From: Octopus vulgaris
Taxonomy: Eukaryota
Length of the DNA: 64,000 bases
NCBI GenBank assembly: GCA_951406725.2
Contig: OX597828.1
Coordinates: 62,744,001 to 62,808,000 of the forward strand
Direction: 5' to 3'
This document shows, piece after piece, positions 28,833 to 49,476 of the stretch. Numbering within the stretch: the stretch's first letter is position 1; every line of letters starts with the position of its first letter. The notes beneath the pieces were generated by a model. The model had not been told where the DNA came from and ran no database searches. It saw only the letters and a list, made by a program, of their open reading frames with translations. Made by a program: the position numbers and the translations under genes.

Positions 28833-29117
28833 GAGAAGAAGGATTGGAAGCTTAAGGATCCTGTGAATGGACAGAGATTTAGAGACATGTTACTTGAAGC
28901 CTTTGACGAAGTAGAAGGGGATAGTGTATCACATGGGGTAGAGGACAACTGGACGTTTCTAAGGGACAACCTGCTGAGAGCCACTGACCAGATCTGTGGC
29001 TGGTGCAAAGTCCCCTCTCGTCCCAAGGTAACGTGGTGGTGGAACAGTGTCGTAGACAGGGCTATTAGAGAAAAGAGACAGACTTGGAAGCACTAGAAAA
29101 ATGGTGGTAGCAGGGAA

Positions 29118-31094
29118 TTGTATCAGACTGCTAAAAGGGAAGCTAGGAGACAGGTCTATCTAGCCAGAGGGGAAGCAGATAAGAAAAAATTTGCCAATGT
29201 TCTGCGCCGTGAGGACCAAAGACTGGAGGTGTTTCGCGTTGCAAGACAGTGTGTGAGAGAGAATTGTGATGTGGTGGGAGAGAAGTGTGTTCGCATGGAA
29301 GATGGTTCACTTGCGCTAAACGAGGATGCAAAGAGAGAGGCTTGGAGATGCCACTATGAAAGGTTGCTGAATAAAGAAAATGAATGGGATAAAGAGATTC
29401 TGCCGAATGTCGACCCAACAGAGGGACCAGCTATCCGAGTTGATAGTTCCTTAGTAGCTAAGGCAATTAGAAGCATGAAGACAGGGAAAGCCCCAGGCCC
29501 ATCAGGTATCACTGCAGAGATGCTCAAAATATCTGGTAGTGTCGGCTATAGCCTAGTCACCTGTATAGTTAATCAGGTGATACATGAAGGAGTCATACCC
29601 AATGACTGGTGTAGCAGCATAATAGTCAACTGCTACAAAGGTAAAGGTGATGCCCTAGATACAAATAATTACAGAGGTATCAAGCTGTTGGATCAGGTGA
29701 TGAAGGTTACAGAGAGGGTCATAAGCCAACTAATTAGAGAGAGAGTTAGTTTAGATGAGATGCAGCTTGGTTTCGTGCCAGGGAAAAGTACCACTGATGC
29801 TATATTCCTGGTAAGGCAGCTGCAGGAGAAATACCCAGCCAAAGATAAGGCCCTGTACCTGGCTTTTGTTGACATGGAGAAAGCCTTCGACAGGGTCCCC
29901 CGATCCCTCATATGGTGGTCAATGAGGAAACTAGGAATAGAAGAATGGTTGGTGAGAGCTGTGCAAGCCATGTACAGGGACGCTGCTAGTAAGGTGAGGG
30001 TTGGAAATGAGTACAGTGAAGAATTCCGGGTAGAGGTAGGGGTCCACCAAGGCTCAGTCCTCAGCCCCCTCCTATTTATCATAGTCCTCCAGGCAATAAC
30101 GGAGGAATTCAAGACAGGATGCCCCTGGGAGCTCCTCTATGCTGATGACCTTGCTCTAATTGCTGAGTCATTATCAGAACTGGAGAAGAGGTTTCAGGTG
30201 TGGAAGCATGGTTTAGAATCGAAGGGCCTTAGAGTCAACCTAGCTAAAACCAAAGTCGTAATAAGTAGGAAGGTAGACAAATCACAAACGCCTTCAGGTA
30301 GATGGCCCTGCTCGATCTGTAGAAAAGGTGTAGGTAGAAACTCTATAAGATGCACCAAGTGCAAGCTATGGACACATAAGAGGTGCAGCAATGTCATAGG
30401 AAGGCTAACTAGGAAGATGGTTTTTGTATGTGGCAGATGCTCGGGAGCATTAACCTCTGAAAATCTGCAGAAAACAACTTCCGTCACTTTCCAGGGGGAA
30501 AAACTAGAAGTGGTTGATAGCTTCCGTTATCTTGGTGACCAAGTCAGTAGTGGGGGTGGGTGTGCTGAAAGTGTAACAGCTAGAGTAAGAATAGCCTGGG
30601 CAAAGTTTAGGGAGCTCTTACCTCTGTTGGTGACTAAAGGCCTCTCGCTCAGAGTAAAAGGCAGACTGTATGATGCATGTGTACGAACAGCCATGCTACA
30701 TGGCAGTGAAACATGGGCCGTGACTGCTGAGGACATGCGTAAGCTCGCGAGAAATGAAGCTAGTATGCTCCGTTGGATGTGTAATGTCAGTGTTCATAGT
30801 CGACAGAGTGTAAGTACCTTGAGAGAAAAGTTGGACCTAAGAGGAATCAGATGTTGTGTGCAAGAGAGACGATTGCGCTGGTATGGTCATGTGGTGAGAA
30901 TGGATGAAGATAGGTGTGTGAAAAAGTGCCACACCCTGGCAGTTGAGGGGACCTGTGGAAGAGGTAGACCCAGGAAAACCTGGGTCGAGGTGGTGAAGCA
31001 CGACCTTCGAACTCTAGGTCTCACCAAGGAAATGACCAGAGACCGAGACCTATGGAAGTATGCTGTGCGTGAGAAGACCCGGCAAGACCAGTGA
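29118..31094 (+). CDS. RTE LINE reverse transcriptase ORF, 658 aa and N-truncated, with an internal PHD-type finger
   Basis: Uninterrupted frame with non-LTR RT motifs and a C4HC3 pattern at 30309-30440. Confidence 0.85.
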   Translation: MYQTAKREARRQVYLARGEADKKKFANVLRREDQRLEVFRVARQCVRENCDVVGEKCVRMEDGSLALNEDAKREAWRCHYERLLNKENEWDKEILPNVDPTEGPAIRVDSSLVAKAIRSMKTGKAPGPSGITAEMLKISGSVGYSLVTCIVNQVIHEGVIPNDWCSSIIVNCYKGKGDALDTNNYRGIKLLDQVMKVTERVISQLIRERVSLDEMQLGFVPGKSTTDAIFLVRQLQEKYPAKDKALYLAFVDMEKAFDRVPRSLIWWSMRKLGIEEWLVRAVQAMYRDAASKVRVGNEYSEEFRVEVGVHQGSVLSPLLFIIVLQAITEEFKTGCPWELLYADDLALIAESLSELEKRFQVWKHGLESKGLRVNLAKTKVVISRKVDKSQTPSGRWPCSICRKGVGRNSIRCTKCKLWTHKRCSNVIGRLTRKMVFVCGRCSGALTSENLQKTTSVTFQGEKLEVVDSFRYLGDQVSSGGGCAESVTARVRIAWAKFRELLPLLVTKGLSLRVKGRLYDACVRTAMLHGSETWAVTAEDMRKLARNEASMLRWMCNVSVHSRQSVSTLREKLDLRGIRCCVQERRLRWYGHVVRMDEDRCVKKCHTLAVEGTCGRGRPRKTWVEVVKHDLRTLGLTKEMTRDRDLWKYAVREKTRQDQ

Positions 31095-31134
31095 GAACAA
31101 TCAAAATCAAATCATATATCAGAAAGCAGGGGTT

Positions 31135-32365
31135 AAGTGACCCATCTGTTCGTGTCCGCTGTCAGCCTCGTCTGGCACCCGTGCCGGTGATACGTAAAAG
31201 CACCATTCGCTCATGGCCGTTTGCCAGCTCTGCCTGGCCCCGTGTCGGTGGCACGTAAAAGCACCATCCGTTCGTGTTCGTTGCCAGCCTCGCCTGGCCC
31301 CGTGCCGGTGACACGTAAAAGCACCGTCTGTTCGTGGCCGTTGGCCAGCTCTGTCTGGCCCCGTGTCGGTGGCACGTAAAAGCACCATCCGTTCGTGGCC
31401 ATTTGCCAGCTCTGTCTGGCCCCGTGTCGGTGGCACGTAAAAGCACCATCCGTCCGTGTCCGTTGCCAGCCTCGGCTGGCCCCCGTGCCGGTGACACGTA
31501 AAAGCACCGTCCGCTCATGGCCGTTTGCCAGCTCTGTCTGGCAACCGTGTCGGTGGCACGTAAAAGCACCATCTGTTCGCGTCCGTTGCCAGCCTCGCCT
31601 GGCCCCGTGCCGGTGACACGTAAAAGCACCGTCCGTTCGTGGCCGTTGGCCAGCTCTGTCTGGCCCCGTGTCGGTGGCACGTAAAAGCACCATCCGTTCG
31701 TGGCCGTTTGCCAGCTCTGTCTGGCCCCGTGTCGGTGGCACGTAAAAGCACCATCCGTCCGTGTCCGTTGCCAGCCTCGGCTGGCCCCCGTGCCGGTGAC
31801 ACGTAAAAGCACCGTCCGCTCGTGGCCGTTTGCCAGCTCTGTCTGGCAACCGTGTCGGTGGGACGTAAAAGCACCATCTGTTCGCGTCCGTTGCCAGCCT
31901 CGGCTGGCCCCCGTGCCGGTGACACGTAAAAGCACCATCCGTTCGTGGCCGTTTGCCAGCTCTGTCTGGCCCCATGTCGGTGGCACGTAAAAGCACCATC
32001 CGTCTGTGTCCGTTGCCAGCCTCGGCTGGCCCCCGTGCCGGTGACACGTAAAAGCACCGTCCGCTCGTGGCCGTTTGCCAGCTCTGTCTGGCAACCGTGT
32101 CGGTGGCACGTAAAAGCATCATCCGTTCGCGTCCGTTGCCAGCCTCGGCTGGCCCCCGTGCCGGTGACACGTAAAAGCACCGTCCGTTCGTGGCCGGTTG
32201 CCAGCTCTGTCTGGCCCCGTGTCGGTGGCACGTAAAAGCACCATCCGTTCGTGTCCGTTGCCAGCATCGCCTGGCCCCGTGCCGGTGACACGTAAAAGCA
32301 CCATCCGTTCTGTGGCCGTTCGCCAGCTCTGTCTGGCACCTGTGCAGGTGGCACGTAAAAAACAC
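31135..32365. repeat. Tandem array of about 20 units of ~61 bp in the RTE 3' UTR
   Basis: Core cgtaaaagcacc recurs every 60-62 bp from ~31193 to ~32354; two unit types. Confidence 0.95.
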
Positions 32366-38391: not shown

Positions 38392-39266
38392 GTCAGTATC
38401 TAAGAAGATGGTCATGGGTAGAATGTCTATCGTAGTTATTTCCAGCTCTTTATATTCTGAGTTCAATCCTTGCCCAGGACAACTTTGACTTTCATCGTTC
38501 TGGAGATGTTAAAGTAAAAATAAATACCAGTCATATACTGAGGGAGAGGGTATTTAAATATTCCCTGTAAAGCATCCTAGATATGAACAGAATTACACTA
38601 AAAGAAATCTCTGAGAATGGTGTGAACAAAATATCTTTCTGGCTGAGTATTCCTATCACTGGTTCCAGTCATTGGACTGTTGCCATGCTGGAAACACTGC
38701 CCTCTGGGTGGTTTTCTTCTAATCACTAAGCAATATTTGCATATTTGATTCTTAAAGGCAACATTGACCTTGGTGGGATTTGAACACAGCACCTAAAGCC
38801 AGAAGAAAAGCTGCTAAACATTCTGTCAGTTGCCAGATTGTTGCTCTATCATAAATTAAAAAAATAAATGGGTAAAATTTTTAAGCATAAACAATATGGA
38901 GCACTTATGAGTATGCATATACAACACACACACACACAGGTACATAAATACATACACACACACACACATACACACAGGTACATAAATACATACACACACC
39001 TCTGTCAGTGTTTATATCAAGCATGACCAATCTTTTGCAAGATGTGGGCTGCATAGAACATGCCTCACCATCAAGCAGGTTGCACCACTGCAAAAAATTA
39101 GTTGTGCCTTCCAGAAAGTTCCATGGGTCACAGTCTGCCCAAGGTTTATGAATTGTGAATTGGGGATTTCCTTATTTCCTCAGAATTCTTCTCATTTTGT
39201 TTGCTATTTAAATTGTTTTTTGTTTTTTTTATTTCTAAATTGTTTTTCTTCTTCCACCCATGAAAG

Positions 39267-39381
39267 CCATTAATTCGACGGTGCCATGAATGTCGGGATC
39301 TTGTTGATGAAGCAAAGAAATTCCATCTACGTCCAGATCTTCGGAGTGGGATGTGTAGCCTGAGGACTCAACCCCGTTATG
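39267..39381 (+). CDS. KLHL12: KLHL12 coding exon 5
   Basis: Bounded by aag| and |gtgaat. PLIRRCHECRDLVDEAKKFHLRPDLRSGMCSLRTQPRY(G); CRDLVDEAKKFHLRP is KLHL12-typical. The acceptor is weak (aag). Confidence 0.9.
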
Positions 39382-40399: not shown

Positions 40400-40651
40400 T
40401 ATATTAGAAGAAATGAGGTACTCAGAAATTCGGATGTTTTTATATTTACAGATATTTATTTGTATATTACATGTTTTTATACATCATATAACTTAGATCA
40501 TGTATTAGCCCTTTCTCCCATTCTAGTGGGGTTTTCAAATCGAACTAAGTTCCTGTGTAAAAAGTTTTGACCATTTTATAGTGTTATTGAGTGTGTAGTG
40601 GTGGGGAGGGATATAAAACAGTGCAAGAGGGTGATGGATGAGGAGAAAGTG

Positions 40652-40709
<58 letters not shown>

Positions 40710-42446
40710 ATGTGTGTGTGCATGTGTGTGTTTTTGTATTTGGAAGAAGTGTTAAAGAAAAAGAGGGGAAGGGAGAGGCAAGAAGAAGAAAAAATGTTTG
40801 TTCTGCTGGACAGGATGTTTACTTCAAGCTGGGTCTAAGATCTTGGGGAAAAAGAATTTAAGTTTTGACCATTTCATAGTGTTATTGAGAGTGTAGTGGT
40901 GGGGAGGGACATAAGAAGGTAGACCATAAATTATATTTCCTTTTTATCATTGTGAGATAGTGTGTATGTGTGTGTGTTTAATGAGGGATGGTCAAATGGT
41001 TTTGGGGTTTTAGAGAAGAAGAATTCTTTTTATTATTATTTTGTGGAGGTGTGTGTGTGTGTGTGAGTGTGTGTGTGTGGGTTTCTGTGAGTTTGGAGAA
41101 GGGAAGAAAGGAGAAGAAGAAAAAAAAAGGAAGAAGAAATAATTGTGTTGATATTTATACTACTATATATATATATATATATACTAAATGCTACATTATG
41201 TTAAATTGTAAATTGAAAGATTTGTCCTTCAATGTATGATGAGCAAAATTTCATAAGGTCCCATTCTTGAAAAAGAGACTTTCTTGTGTTGAAGTTACAG
41301 ATGACAGAATACAAACTGACAACTACTGAGTCTGATCTTCAATTGATTTAGTCTAATATCTCACTGATTGACACTGATTGACATAGGTGAAACTGGAAAT
41401 TCTTTGTGCCAATGAGCCAGGATTCACCAACAAAATGTCCGACAGGAAGAACTGTGCAAGATACCACTGAGTAAACACCTAGATACATGTGGAGAAGGAA
41501 AATTTAAGATCTTTCCCTTCTACAAATGTCCAAACAACGACACCTCCTTCAGGAGGAATATGGAAAAATACTTCATAACTAACTTCTCCCCCAAATTGAA
41601 TGGCTGAAAATATCTCAATAATAAGCTGTACCAGATGAAGGACCAAATTTGTTAAGAAAACTGTATTAAACACACAAACACACAGTTCTACACATATGTT
41701 TTGGTTTTTGAAAATACAACATTGAACAAAGGATATTCTAATATTTGAATGAAACCATTTCACTTTAATTTGTGGAACCAGTTGCTCCTGTATGATAAAA
41801 CTTAATATTTATTTAACTGTCAATCAGTGAGATATTAGACTAAATCAATTGAAGATCAGACTCAGTAGTTGTCAGTTTGTATTCTGTCATCTGTAACTTA
41901 AACACAAGAAAGTCTCTTTTTCAAGAATGGACCTTATGAAATTTTGCTCATCATACATTGAAGGACAAATCTTTCAATTTACAATTTAACATAGTGTAGC
42001 ATTTAGTATATATATATATATATATAGTGGTATAAATATCAACACAATTATTTCTTCTTCTTTTTTTTTCTTCTTCTCCTTTCTTCCCTTCTCCAAACTT
42101 ACAGACACCCATACACACACCTCCACAAAATAATAATAAAAAGAATTCTTCTTCTCTAAAACCCCAAAACCATTTGACCATCCCTCATTAAACACACACA
42201 CATACACACTATCTCACAATGATAAAAAGGAAATATAATTTATGGTCTACCTTCTTATGTCCCTCCCCACCACTACACTCTCAATAACACTATGAAATGG
42301 TCAAAACTTAAATTCTTTTTCCCCAAGATCTTAGACCCAGCTTGAAGTAAACATCCTGTCCAGCAGAACAAACATTTTTCTTCTTCTTGCCTCTCCCTTC
42401 CCCTCTTTTTCTTTAACACTTCTTCCAAATACAAAAACACACACAT

Positions 42447-42521
<75 letters not shown>

Positions 42522-42770
42522 TTTCTCCTCATCCATCACCCTCTTGCACTGTTTTATATCCCTCCCCACCACTACACACTCAATAACACTATAAAATGGT
42601 CAAAACTTTTTACACAGGAACTTAGTTCGATTTGAAAACCCCACTAGAATGGGAGAAAGGGCTAATACATGATCTAAGTTATATGATGTATAAAAACATG
42701 TAATATACAAATAAATATCTGTAAATATAAAACCATCCGAATTTCTGAGTACTTCATTTCTTCTAATATA
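40400..42770 (+). mobile_element. Penelope-like element: 5'-truncated GIY-YIG remnant plus 3' tail, with an inverted ~970 bp copy of the tail upstream
   Basis: 41383-41607 reads IGETGNSLCQ*ARIHQQ..SKHLDTC..FKIFPFY..RRNMEKYFITNFSPKLNG*. Arms 40400-41373 and 41818-42770 are near-identical inverted repeats. Confidence 0.8.
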
Positions 42771-42996: not shown

Positions 42997-43055
42997 AAAG
43001 TGTGAATATTTTAGACGGGGAAATTTCACAGATTACAAGGAATAAAATAGAAATA

Positions 43056-43570
43056 CAGTTCTATATTTAAGAGATGAGGAATTCTGTACATTATTTATAT
43101 TACTTACATTTGACGGGTATTTGTCTTCATCTTGTTTGTTGTTAACACAACGTTTCAGCTGATATACCCTCCAGCCTTCATCAAGTGTCTTGGAGAAATT
43201 TTGAACCTGGGTTCTCATTCCTAAGTTATTTTTCGATGTTATTATTCTGATCCCTGCCTGGAATTGTAGTCAGAATTGGGGTTAGTAGCCCGTGCTCTTA
43301 ACCACTACGCCATGGACATATTGCATAGTGGTTAAGATCACAGGCTACTAACCCCAAGATTCCGAGTTTGATTCCAGGCATGGTCCTGAATAATAATAAT
43401 AATAATAATGACAACAACATCAAAAAATACCTTAGGAATGAGAAGCCAGATTCAAAATTTCCCCAAGACACCTGATGAATGCTGGAGGGTATATCAGCTG
43501 AAATGTTGTGTTAACAACAAACGAGATGAGAACAAATATCCATCAAATGAAAATAATGTAAATAATGTGA
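43056..43570. mobile_element. Head-to-head pair of short elements, each with a tRNA-like head and a hammerhead-like tail
   Basis: A-box tagtggttaag, B-box-like gtttgattcc and anticodon-like arm ggg-ctactaa-ccc; tails of the form gacac-ctgatga-a-ggctg..cagc-gaaac-gtt-gtgtt. Confidence 0.75.
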
Positions 43571-44210
43571 ATAAAATAGAAGAATAAAGAGTAAAAGTAG
43601 CTTACTCCTTTATTTTTCTATTTTAATCCTTATATACTGTGAATTTTATTCCTTGTGTGTGTGTGGGGGGGGGGGGGTCACTTGACTGACCAGACTATCA
43701 GACAATGTAACTTGCATTATTGTAGCTTTTGAATGTTGCCCCTGCACTGGTTAAGTGGGCAGAGCCAACATTCCCCTCTTAAATGGTATGACAGTCCATC
43801 ACAGGGGTACCCGTTTACAGCTGAATGGACTGGAATAACGGGAAATGAATATGTAGCAGTCTGGGAATTGAAACCACGATGTTATCATGAGTGCAGCGCT
43901 TTAATCACCACACCACACACCTTTATTTATATCAGATGTTGCTACACATCGCTGGTCACCATGCGCTTCACATTGTTTTAGCCTCCAAATGATGCCACCC
44001 CGCTGGCTAAGTGAGCAGGCCAACAGAAGAAAGAGTGAGATATTGTTGTGGCGAAAGAGTACAGCAGGGATCACCACCACCTCCTGCCAGAGCCTTGTGG
44101 AACTTTAGGTGTTTTCACTCAATAAACACTCACAACGTCCGGTCTGGGAATCGAAACCGCGATCCTACGACTGCGTGTCCGCTGCCCTAACCACTGGGCC
44201 ATTGTGCCTC

Positions 44211-44421: not shown

Positions 44422-44592
44422 GTAAGTACCATTGTCAGTATTATTCTCTGTTTCAGAGGAAGGCATAGATGTTTATAACAATCTAATCTTTTATGCTAAC
44501 AAAAAACCCTTAAAGGATTTAACCCTAAATCTAAAATAGATTGAAATGCAATAGATTGATACTAGGGCCATAATCATGGGTGACATTTTCAT

Positions 44593-45013
44593 TTGACACC
44601 GCTAGAAAAAAATCTCATTTTCCGTAGCGGTGTCAAATGAAAATGTCACCCATAATTATGGCCCTAGTATCAATCTATTGCATTTCAATCTATTTTAGAT
44701 TTAGGGTTAGGGTTAGGGGTGGGGGAAGGGTATTTTTTTTCTTCACAAATGTAAATAAACCCAATGTGTTTCTTAAAGGAGGGACATATTCATACAGCAC
44801 GGAATGTTGTTTACCTAAATGGAGGTCAGGGATTGGTTAAAATTGCTGAAATGCTCGAAATTAAAGTGGAAATATGTTACAACATATAGAATTTTCTCAA
44901 TAAAGCCAAGAAAAAATGATGTTTTATAAACACATTCTACCAGTATACGAAGTTTAAAAGTGTTTAGTTAACTAGAAATTATGTTACAAAGTGCCGTTCA
45001 AAAGGAAAAGATC
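44593..45013. mobile_element. Non-autonomous DNA element with internal TTAGGG units, preceded by an inverted copy of its left part
   Basis: Ends atctcattttcc and ggaaaagatc; tttagggttagggttaggg at ~44700; arms 44520-44604 and 44624-44709. Confidence 0.5.
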
Positions 45014-46151: not shown

Positions 46152-48230
46152 GTAGAGAATTGGATTTCTTTAAATATTTCGGAGTGGTGTGATGATGGTG
46201 ATGATGATGTTGTTGTTATTGTTGTCATTGGTGGTTTAAGATTTATTGTGATGGTGATGGTGGTGTTGTTATTGTAGTTGTTGATGTTGTTGTTAGTGGT
46301 GATGGTTAGCTGGTTGTTAGTATTGTGCTGCAAGATAATGTTGTTATTGCTGTTTAGCCCTGAGTTGATCCTGGTCAAGCTGACCTGTAGCTAAAAGTTT
46401 ACAAGCCTTCACTGTCCTCTCTTTTCATTTTAGGATATTGTCCAATGCACATTTTATGTTTTAATAGATTTGGATCTTATTCAAGGTAATGAGCTGGCAG
46501 AATCATTATCGCTCCAGACAAAATGCTTTGTGGCATTTCATCTGTCTTTACATTGCGAGTTCAAATTCCACCAAAGCTGATTTTGTCTTTCATCTATTCA
46601 GGGTCAGTAGAATAAGTACCAGTTGATTGCAGGGGTCAATGTGATCGATGTAGCCCCTCCTCTTGAATTATTGGTCTTGTGGAAAAATATGAAAGCAATA
46701 TATTACAATGTTATTTGATGGAATTTGACTGTTGTTTCTAGCAAGACATGCAATCACATAACCTGACTCATTCTGAAAGATGTGTTGACATTCTTCTTAG
46801 TGGTATGCTTGCTTTTTAACCTTGGGCAGACTCCCATTGACCAGAAAAGGATCAATGACAGCCCGGCTGTTATGTTCCTGTCTTGTGGAGAAGAATACTG
46901 CATCTCAAAGTGCAGCACATAATCTGGTTTCCCTGCATTTTTAATGCTATTCCTTTGTGATATGAGATTTCTCTGCCATTTCTAGCAAGTTCAGTCACAA
47001 GCAAAGGGTTTTACATCATCAAGTGGTTTGTGAGGTTGTAGTGACTGGATGCTGAATCCAGAAGTAGTTTATGTGGTAGTAGTGAGTAGTTATAGTGAGT
47101 CAATGTAGCAAGTAGTTTATGAGGTAGTTGTCACTGGATAGTTAACGAAGAAATAATTTATTAGATAATATTAACTGAATTGTGTAGGAATCAACTGCTT
47201 TTCTGAGTTGTGGATGTCGTTGGTGTCATGTAAATGGCACCTGTGCTGGTGGCACATAAAAAGCACCCATTACACTCTTGGAGTGGTTGGCATTAGGAAG
47301 GGCATCATCCAGCCACAGAAACCTTGCCAAATCAGACAGGAACCTGGTGCAGCTCTCTGGTTTACCAGTTCCAGTCAAACCGTCCAACCCATGCCAGCAG
47401 GGAAAGCGGATGTTAAATGGTGATGGTGATGATGACATATTTTTGTTTTAATAATTAAATGAAAGATTGATGTATGTTAGAATTATTTGGATGGTTTAAT
47501 ATGTGTGAACGGCAGGTCTGACTGCAGATTCCCACATAAAGTTATGACCTATTGAAATGTCATCATCATCATCATATCCTTTCGCATCTGTCTTCCTGGC
47601 TGATGTGGGTTGGACCGTTTGACAGAATCTCACTAAATTGGAAGACTGCTTCATGCTCCAGTGTCTGGGTATGATGTGGTTTCTGTGGCTGGGTGCCTTT
47701 CTTAAATCCAACTACTTTACTGAATGTTCTCGATGCTCATTTTGGGTCCCTAGTGCAAATGATGTCAGTAATTTGCAAGACAATGAAAATGTCCCCCTCG
47801 TCTCTGTATATTTGTTGCCATGGTCTGAAAGGTATGACAGAGGGAGAAGCACAGGTGTTTCTGTTATGGAGGAGATATGTGGCTACCCTGTATTATTAAG
47901 AGTGGTCATAAGTTGCTGGAAAGAAGACAAAAGCAGTACTGACAAGTTTACTGTCAAGGGACAAGAAGATGAGTTTGTAAAAGAATTGAGAGGAAAGGTG
48001 AAAGATGGTGACCAATGAAAAGATAAGGATGTGAGAGGAAATTTAAAAGAAGGAGATGGAACAGACAGTTTGAAGAAGGAGATGGAAGGGAATGGAGTAT
48101 GGAGTGTGAAGGGGAAAGAAATAGGATTGGCTGAAATGGTGAAAGATTTGTACTGAGGTTCCAGGCTTCAGTAGTCATCACTGACCAATGACAAATTTAC
48201 AAGGCAAAATCATGTTTGATCTCTTTCCAG

Positions 48231-48488
48231 GGAAAATCTATGTTTGTGGTGGGTTTGATGGTTACTCTCGACACACAAGTATGGAGGTTTATAATGTTGT
48301 GCTTGACCAGTGGATATTACTGTGTGGTATGTCTGTTGGTCGTGAAGGAGCTGGACTTGTTGTGGCCAGAGACAAGATTTACTGTATTGGAGGATATGAT
48401 GGGGTTAATCTCCTTGATTCAGGAGAAGTTTATGATCCAGACACTGAACGATGGTCACCCATGGAACCAATGTCCACTCGACGATCAG
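48231..48488 (+). CDS. KLHL12: KLHL12 coding exon 8 (Kelch 3-4)
   Basis: Bounded by tttccag| and |gtcagc. KIYVCGGFDGYSRHTSMEVY...REGAGLVVARDKIYCIGGYDGVNLL...MSTRRS(G). Confidence 0.94.
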
Positions 48489-49476
48489 GTCAGCAGCTTA
48501 CCTTTATTTCAGCTTGTATTTTTTTTTTCCTTTTGTGTTTGTTTATTATTGTTATTTATTTCCCTTTTTTTTTTCTGTCTGTAAAAACTGGACACATTAT
48601 TCGATAGAAATTTTACTTCATATTAATTTATATAGACATAGATATTTGACCTACAAATGTCAATGTATATGTGTTGCTGAAGTGAACAGTTAGGTTGTAG
48701 GTGCTACCATAGTGTAGCCAAATACTAAGGTTAGTACAATCAACTATTCCTGCAATGAAAAATGGGTGACCATTTTTTCCAGTAGTAAAAATCCCTGTTA
48801 TTTTCATCAGTAAGTGACAGAAATTATCTTGTTAGCAAATAAAGGAAGTTAATCCTGGACAAGTTCTGCCTTGTTGTGTTTTTTCAGTAGCAATTACAGA
48901 CCATTCTCTTACCAAATAAATAGCTTAGTAAACATTCTAAATGATAAATTTTTTTGTCTTAGATTGAAATTGATAAGTATATTAATTTAAGATGACAACA
49001 ATTAATTTGGTGAAAAAATATTTTTCTACATATTCCACTTACAAACTTATGCATAATTAAATCTTTAGTTGTTGCTGTTATTGTTTGGCCCAGGACAGCT
49101 CTAATCTAGCAACCCTACAACCAAAGGTGTTCCATCTGTGACCACCCTTTCTTTTAATGTTTTATTCCCCATTCTATACTTAAGGCCTTCCTTGATGTTG
49201 CTGTTTACCCCCGGGGCAGTCACAGTCATGCAGACCTTCGATCAAAACCATTCCAGCCATGATGACATCTTTTATTTACACATTGTATCCAGGATGCATT
49301 ATACATTGTGTTCCCCTCTTTGTTTTTTCTTAATACAGGACAATGTGACTTGATGGTGATTTGGCTGCTATTTCTGGCATAAAGGCCAACCACACATATG
49401 CTGTTATGTTGAATGTTCAAATTGTTAGTGTATCCTTTATGTATATTTAAATTGCTGATGTAATTATCTGTTTTAG

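Follow-up and report, generated by a model that had tools for sequence, protein, structure and literature searches.

Paired terminal repeats of a coding Penelope element with a tRNA-Arg-derived, likely Pol III promoter segment in Octopus vulgaris

We analysed a stretch of 64,000 nucleotides of the Octopus vulgaris genome (assembly GCA_951406725.2, contig OX597828.1, positions 62,744,001 to 62,808,000 of the forward strand), hereafter the window, in which coordinates count from the first letter. Two inverted copies of a unit of about 250 bp lie head-to-head in it, at 43053-43313 (minus strand) and 43310-43568 (plus strand). They were located by pairwise alignment and by reading the sequence; the alignment holds 237 identical columns and the arms are 89% complementary, which bears out the inverted layout reported in a first-pass annotation of this DNA. 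Element position 0 is the first G of GGCG in the A-box. The unit is the terminal repeat (pLTR) of a Penelope-like element (PLE), and the features of the insertion, including its target site duplication (TSD), are the following.

43040-43052, plus strand: left TSD, 13 bp, exact direct repeat with 43569-43581
43053-43313, minus strand: left pLTR copy, tail included, spanning element positions -2 to about +271
43053-43081, minus strand: optional 3' tail of about 27 nt (second priming site), also ORF codons ~46-55
43144-43189, minus strand: left minimal hammerhead of type I with a C3-to-U mutation, from the sequence and the family majority
between 43149 and 43148, minus strand: left predicted cut, placed by the hammerhead consensus
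43216-43218, minus strand: ATG of the Penelope ORF, left copy; the pLTR frame continues into the ORF at loci L310, L311, L313 and L314
43240-43313, minus strand: left tRNA-Arg-derived head, A-box 43302-43312, decayed B-box 43260-43271
43310-43313, no strand: head-to-head junction, a 4-bp overlap common to both copies, read from the sequence
43310-43568, plus strand: right pLTR copy, without the tail, element positions -12 to about +244
43314-43387, plus strand: right tRNA-Arg-derived head, A-box 43321-43331, B-box 43364-43375, from the family majority aligned to host tRNA-Arg(ACG)
43388-43419, plus strand: (AAT)n/(AAC)n tract of variable length, read from the sequence
43438-43440, plus strand: ATG of the Penelope ORF, right copy, by the ORF frame
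43467-43512, plus strand: right minimal hammerhead of type I with mutations at G10.1 and C15.2, its cut predicted after 43507
43569-43581, plus strand: right TSD, 13 bp, exact direct repeat with 43040-43052

Three of these features go beyond the earlier annotation: the 13-bp TSD around the whole pair, a 3' tail that the right arm lacks, and an ATG located 30 nt before the hammerhead. Excising the insertion in silico restores a long palindrome, which is the target site. This AT-rich palindrome (43010-43052 and 43582-43660) has arms of about 55 bp and folds at -46.8 kcal/mol with the insertion removed; it is possibly a MITE. A second hairpin with 83-nt arms (95%) is found at 44529-44700, and an inverted repeat of about 970 bp with 96.5% identity (40400-41373 and 41818-42770) lies immediately to the left of the pair. 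By eye, a different tRNA-like SINE head was seen nearby (44130-44205, minus strand), as was a 665-aa RTE-like RT ORF at 29097-32360, followed by a 61-bp tandem array. Exons that resemble the kelch type by eye flank the pair on the plus strand (39264-39360 and 48185-48490), and the pair is thus likely located in an intron.

Each copy displays the parts of a type I hammerhead: stem I GACAC/GTGTT, CTGATGA, an extra A, stem II GGCTG/CAGCC and GAAACGTT. All of the hammerhead parts listed in the first-pass annotation were seen, with the mutations in the respective copies as stated there, and the intact consensus core that it had predicted is indeed that of the family majority, in which the conserved core, stems I and II and the palindromic 15.2-16.2 are all present. 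The majority also matches the minimal hammerhead type described from PLEs (PMC4209133). Rfam returned no hammerhead or tRNA in the window pair or in 8 good copies, and ARAGORN reported 0 tRNAs in the 64-kb window. As the head has decayed and minimal hammerheads call for different models, these blanks are not evidence against either feature. The fold of each window copy was not better than that of shuffled sequences (z -1.4 and -1.1).

Copies of the family decay neutrally (median non-CpG conservation 0.94), and therefore covariation within the family provides no test of the ribozyme. The only common non-CpG variant of the core falls at the tolerated N7 (43 T and 20 A among 64) and is a conservative codon change. 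When compared with the hammerheads of six other PLE families, 86% of cells pair, with 24 double changes and 0/500 shuffles; these six were chosen from 17 motif matches pre-filtered for stem II pairing, so that only the stem I covariation is independent. The covariation of stems I and II that the first-pass annotation had proposed to test is seen across PLE families, with that restriction to stem I, and not among the dead copies within the family.

The head boxes were matched against the A- and B-box consensus. Both boxes are intact in the majority, while the tRNA stems pair poorly. In the window the tRNA-like head with its two boxes is recognizable as annotated, except that the left B-box is decayed, and both copies contain an (AAT)n tract. 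End-to-end alignment of the majority head to host tRNA-Arg(ACG) gave 50 matches in 69 columns (72%, z 11.1), with tRNA position 1 falling at element position -8. The runner-up among 30 other tRNA loci, a set of only six isotypes that leaves out Ser and most others, was Arg-TCG (z 8.0). Because the best alignment is to tRNA-Arg(ACG), the ACT anticodon arm proposed before is better read as a decayed ACG loop. As a side observation, a cluster of 23 closely spaced matches to the anticodon-arm motif of tRNA-Arg(ACG) occurs at G000:C2:211887730-211907120. With a tRNA-derived head bearing A- and B-boxes, and a defined 5' end at that head, where ends pile up at -16..+9, the unit displays apparent SINE-like traits.

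The repeat is nonetheless the pLTR of an abundant Penelope/Poseidon-type retrotransposon and no independent SINE. Several copies extend upstream of the head into coding sequence. Among loci picked by the 3' end of the ORF (with a query that reached element position +6), 29/29 non-seed loci run on into the head, and 27 of the 29, by eye, to the hammerhead or the tail repeats. The stop codon of the RT/GIY-YIG-type ORF lies 40 nt before the A-box. Among loci picked by the N-terminal region of the ORF, the tail runs in frame into the ORF in four of five non-seed cases. The ATG falls at +108 with the predicted cut 70 nt downstream, the hammerhead lies inside codons 10-25, and the 3' ends of copies fall 119-163 nt into the ORF. 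What looked like body and tail of a SINE is thus the first ~55 codons of a Penelope protein, and the head is UTR. Read in order, the element runs from the ORF stop across 40 nt to the A-box/B-box head, then through (AAT)n, the ATG and the hammerhead within the first codons to either of two 3' ends, and on into the ORF again. The pLTR, which holds the ORF start, was seen on both sides of the ORF, but in different copies; the copies fetched did not include an intact full-length one. The tail is thus shared with an autonomous Penelope, which the first-pass annotation had suggested looking for.

The long copies L133 and L134 carry a broken RT ORF (Pfam RVT_1, E 1.4e-10). The RT fragment had 371 homologs, including an 836-aa Anolis protein at 44% which, from its species, length and similarity and without a tree, is taken to be Poseidon-like. 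The assignment of the octopus element to Penelope/Poseidon is likewise by similarity, no tree having been built. The majority sequence reads as a single ORF of 839 codons with a PLE-type RT and two homopolymer frame slips, and the peptide motif encoded by the hammerhead, PD(D/E)G...PKRCVNN, is kept in an 847-aa relative. GIY-YIG motifs (CSCG, YKGET, R..EH) were recognized by eye in L084, L086, L133 and relatives; Pfam PF01541 is listed for the homolog P0025 and gave no match in two C-terminal fragments tried. The putative endonuclease is thus called from motifs and homologs.

ORF-linked pLTR copies (L104-L132) often display short internal deletions between repeated motifs, which suggests template jumps of the RT. 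A genome profile search with Pfam GIY-YIG mainly returned another, young PLE family (L091-L096, e.g. G000:C4:116250000-116255500), with many uninterrupted 781-aa RT/GIY-YIG ORFs and an overlapping upstream ORF. This family, which has a zinc-finger linker, was rejected as a partner of the unit, as 0/30 loci and 0/12 extended stretches share it. No canonical hammerhead was found in the stretch of its repetitive 3' UTR that was fetched.

Each pair is a single insertion of two head-to-head pLTR copies. Of 55 pairs in which each arm had its 3' end, 28 are flanked by a direct repeat of at least 10 nt with no more than one mismatch, compared to 1.8% of mismatched flanks; the modal length of the repeat was 12. 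The tail is present on exactly one arm in 47 of the 55 pairs, on both arms in three and on neither in five, a count in which 17 pairs had been picked by the tail; it is on one arm in 6/6 assessable random pairs. The 3' ends are bimodal (n = 186), with 95 at +225..+249 and 81 at +265..+271. Two side-by-side, independent SINE insertions with a LINE-derived tail would account for the SINE-like size of the arms and for nothing else. Such insertions should not share a single TSD enclosing both arms, as seen in the window and in those 28 pairs, nor make up 9/19 random insertions as pairs, and their tail is in fact the start of the Penelope ORF. We consider this origin extremely improbable, as it is refuted by the common TSD and the ORF linkage.

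This layout is that of published PLEs, which display an inverted pLTR, an optional tail at one end, a 9-10-bp TSD and a pLTR with the first codons (PMC3846280, PMC8557442). The use of Penelope machinery, postulated from the first inspection of the sequence, is borne out by the ORF linkage, the one-sided tail and the ~12-bp TSD around whole pairs. In the anole element, in vitro, reverse transcription starts at two internal sites on either side of the tail; the protein both nicks and extends each of the two strands, with uncleaved RNA as the template (PMC11167929). By analogy with that element, the octopus RT would start inside the RNA at one of two sites about 120-165 nt into the ORF, again on uncleaved RNA. 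The endonuclease may cut both strands ~12 bp apart, with each cut end priming one cDNA, one at the tail site and the other at the inner site, and the two cDNAs would meet head-to-head by microhomology. A start in the upstream pLTR would yield a cDNA of ~250 nt ending at the 5' end of the RNA, thus producing an excess of short, SINE-looking copies.

To estimate the abundance of the family in this genome (2.8 Gb, 227 contigs), in which a first-look search had returned 4,751 candidates with 40 scored, we sampled 138 evenly spaced 10-kb stretches (1.38 Mb). Matches were found in 21 of them, and 19 insertions were left once two spurious matches had been removed, L183, with another kind of tRNA-like head (73%), and L195, with AAT only. 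Head-to-head pairs make up 9 of the 19, a sampled counterpart to the count of inverted pairs proposed earlier, and no head-to-tail tandem array of the unit occurs among these insertions, all of which are solo or head-to-head. Extrapolation yields about 39,000 insertions (23,000-60,000), roughly half of them head-to-head, a rough estimate since density differs between batches (17/78 and 4/60). Copies are about 93% identical to the majority.

Short copies far outnumber those bearing the ORF, with 24 of 28 random 5' ends at or after -14; of the copies extending as far as the head, about one in six continues into the ORF. This excess could mean that the element behaves in part as a Penelope-dependent SINE, with solo pLTR stubs transcribed by Pol III and re-mobilised in trans, and with most short copies derived from non-coding masters. 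A stub keeps intact boxes and both 3' start sites and contains no TTTT; because stubs carry the promoter and the RT start sites, re-mobilisation of this kind is possible. Moreover, in Adineta the pLTR sequences work in trans (PMC3846280), and PLE derivatives that are non-autonomous are known (PMC8557442; bioRxiv 10.64898/2026.07.22.740005). Against this, ORF-linked copies and partner or short copies differ at 0/256 majority positions, are equally diverged (0.931 and 0.929) and share the N7 T/A polymorphism (about 20-30 copies a group), so that they are indistinguishable by sequence. The head is also integral to the autonomous pLTR, and RT starts within the full RNA account for the stubs with no need of additional masters. 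Hence, we regard non-coding masters as unlikely, and the simplest reading of the stubs is that an RT starting in the upstream pLTR copies only ~250 nt to the RNA 5' end. The separate non-autonomous SINE with a borrowed Penelope tail that the first-pass annotation had proposed is not supported by these data, as head and tail both lie within the pLTR of the autonomous element and the 256 majority positions are the same.

The position at which copies stop provides insights into where the RNA begins. By eye, 15 of the 28 random 5' ends fall after +9, nine within -14..+9 and four further upstream; among the 13 random copies that reach the head, nine stop at -14..+9, where 1.0 is expected (P 8e-8). 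Two BLAST-picked sets displayed the same pattern, with head stops in 26/28 and 10/12 copies. Counting L002 and L084, by eye, as copies that continue past the head across a small deletion lowers these to 25/28 and 9/12; of the 29 loci picked by the tail, 17 had no head that satisfied the match rule and were excluded. Transcription would hence start some 10-15 nt upstream of the A-box. Junctions there could also be favoured by an imperfect 12-nt palindrome at -15..-4. Yet solo copies stop at -14..+8 too, as do arms with a partner that ends elsewhere (L182, L192, L143, L181, L186), and so the palindrome is not the whole cause.

RNA-seq read ends pile up at -15 (393, 306 and 309 reads), and on L111 the same step was seen together with loose ends continuing with the partner head. 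Family reads are strand-symmetric (strandedness of the library was not established), and 63-67% of them run on into unlike sequence. In the raw reads we found no pile-up of molecule ends, and no start, end or strand signal for a promoter. Such reads are expected for read-through of many genomic copies; they reflect genomic structure and not a promoter.

The sense strand of the 2,661-nt majority unit has no TTTT, with shuffle means of 4.6, 2.9 and 2.5 and P values of 0.005 (mononucleotide), 0.025 (synonymous-codon) and 0.05 (dinucleotide). Four long single copies have none either, and two others have one and two. Elsewhere in the genome, two PLE ORFs have nine and eight, and an RTE ORF has two. 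A metagenome scan with alignment A2 provided controls from outside this genome, 79 loci of which 59 were long enough for the count, and 4/59 PLE-type ORF segments also have no TTTT; the majority sequence drops private T-runs while these controls are single copies. A scan with P0009 gave no match. By pattern, none of the 79 control loci has an A/B-box head beside a hammerhead, and three box matches looked like separate tRNAs or SINEs. The absence of TTTT is thus suggestive only as a Pol III signal. Three metagenome contigs (L335, L336 and L360) have PLE-type ORFs with 27-29% T and 0, 1 and 1 TTTT, versus 8.0, 5.5 and 6.7 expected; these are possibly a second lineage that avoids Pol III terminators.

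Taken from the pile-up of 5' ends, the tRNA-derived head likely acts as a Pol III promoter. We thus read the pair as a single insertion of two pLTRs of a coding Penelope element that include a tRNA-derived segment, likely a Pol III promoter, and give this reading a probability of about 0.65. Instead, the tRNA piece might be a passive relic of a SINE or tRNA retrocopy in the 3' UTR, with a Pol II internal promoter driving the element and the pile-up marking either that start or a junction at the palindrome. Penelope of D. virilis indeed has a TATA-less, Pol II-type internal promoter, and known PLE promoters are Pol II-like (PMC2377424). The head also ends in (AAT)n, like the tail of a SINE, read junctions centre on the palindrome, and some control ORFs lack TTTT too. 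A relic would leave unexplained why solo copies and arms with a differently ending partner stop at the same place, why this place is where a tRNA-type promoter would start, and why the A- and B-boxes are intact when the tRNA stems are not. We find a passive relic distinctly unlikely.

A stronger form of the Pol III reading is that an autonomous coding element has its whole ~2.7-kb RNA made by Pol III from a captured tRNA-Arg promoter, has been purged of TTTT, and gives rise by its RT starts to tens of thousands of SINE-like stubs. We put this forward tentatively, as somewhat unlikely. Pol III RNA has no cap for translation; if the head drives the full RNA, this raises the question of how an uncapped RNA is translated, and the hammerhead in the first codons becomes a candidate player in that process. 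Such a promoter would also run against the rule of thumb that autonomous retrotransposons rely on Pol II (PMC10886601); Kojima considers Pol III too weakly processive for them (PMC10886601). If this stronger form is true, it would represent a direct route from a Penelope element to a SINE.

The two ribozymes of a pair are on opposite strands, and a transcript thus has one ribozyme and its complement, which leaves no cis double-hammerhead; the inverted pair is therefore no self-cleaving dimer. RNA ends at the GUU site, which the first-pass annotation had proposed to map, are likewise not supported: copies span the cut, and 5' ends have no clear pile-up there (one exactly at the predicted cut, +178, and 8/49 within +170..+189). 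The computed double-hammerhead trans dimer (-24.3 kcal/mol) is not favoured over two monomers (2 x -13.6) or an alternative cofold (-31.2). Cutting would occur only as a trans dimer, between two pLTRs of one RNA, or with the help of protein.

These findings have implications for the study of PLE integration, whose mechanism is so far based on one in vitro study: the ~39,000 insertions, with their two kinds of 3' end, a tail on one side and TSDs of ~12 bp, form an in vivo data set for it. In addition, pLTR stubs of this kind can be mis-annotated as SINEs. Head-to-head pairs in introns would give RNA hairpins of ~250 bp, which are likely substrates for editing.

The insertion layout and the ribozyme are known features of PLEs, and the new part is the tRNA-type promoter segment in the pLTR of a coding element. 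In our literature search, no description of a PLE pLTR carrying a tRNA-derived promoter came up; Repbase, Dfam and supplements lie outside that search and may already list the family. A recent repeat annotation of octopus lists Penelope and many unclassified SINE families and, in the text available, does not describe this unit (PMC13282606). The nearest precedents are Cassandra, Helenus and Ajax, in non-autonomous LTR elements (PMC10886601), and the alpha repeats of schistosomes (PMC6765202).

The element shares with Poseidon_Ac of Anolis (PMC11167929) and Pen2a of Adineta (PMC3846280), as far as described there, a single ORF of ~840 aa with RT followed by an endonuclease that is putative in octopus, a pLTR with the ORF start and a hammerhead, an inverted 5' copy, an optional one-arm tail, a TSD of 9-15 bp and, by our reading of the octopus copies, two internal RT start sites and an uncleaved template. 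Unlike these, the octopus pLTR has a tRNA-Arg-derived A/B-box segment at the apparent RNA start, its element has no sense-strand TTTT, and most of its insertions are stubs of the pLTR only. The predicted hammerhead does not differ in motif from the minimal ones of PLEs (Cervera and de la Pena 2014, PMC4209133): both are of type I, with an extra nucleotide after CUGANGA, G10.1-C11.1, a 6-bp stem II, a 5-bp stem I and a palindromic ACGU replacing stem III. Hammerhead motifs of PLEs located 100-700 bp apart on opposite strands were also noted there.

Animal non-LTR retrozymes (bioRxiv 10.64898/2026.07.22.740005) are similarly non-coding, PLE-pLTR-related pieces with type I hammerheads. They are defined by tandem head-to-tail units, whereas the 19 random octopus insertions hold no tandem arrays; as these are solo or head-to-head and copies span the cut, we rejected this class for the octopus unit. 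The schistosome repeats Sm-alpha and Sj-alpha, which are SINE-like, also have a Pol III-type promoter followed by a hammerhead, in head-to-tail arrays that the ribozyme cuts into monomers (PMC6765202). In contrast, the octopus copies are dispersed, lie head-to-head, extend across the cut site and belong to a coding element. Finally, Cassandra, Helenus and Ajax, the TRIMp3 elements, have in common with the octopus repeat a small-RNA-derived Pol III promoter (a likely one in octopus) within a terminal repeat, probably gained through the insertion of a SINE or tRNA; they are short non-autonomous LTR elements, whereas the octopus repeat belongs to a coding Penelope element (PMC10886601).
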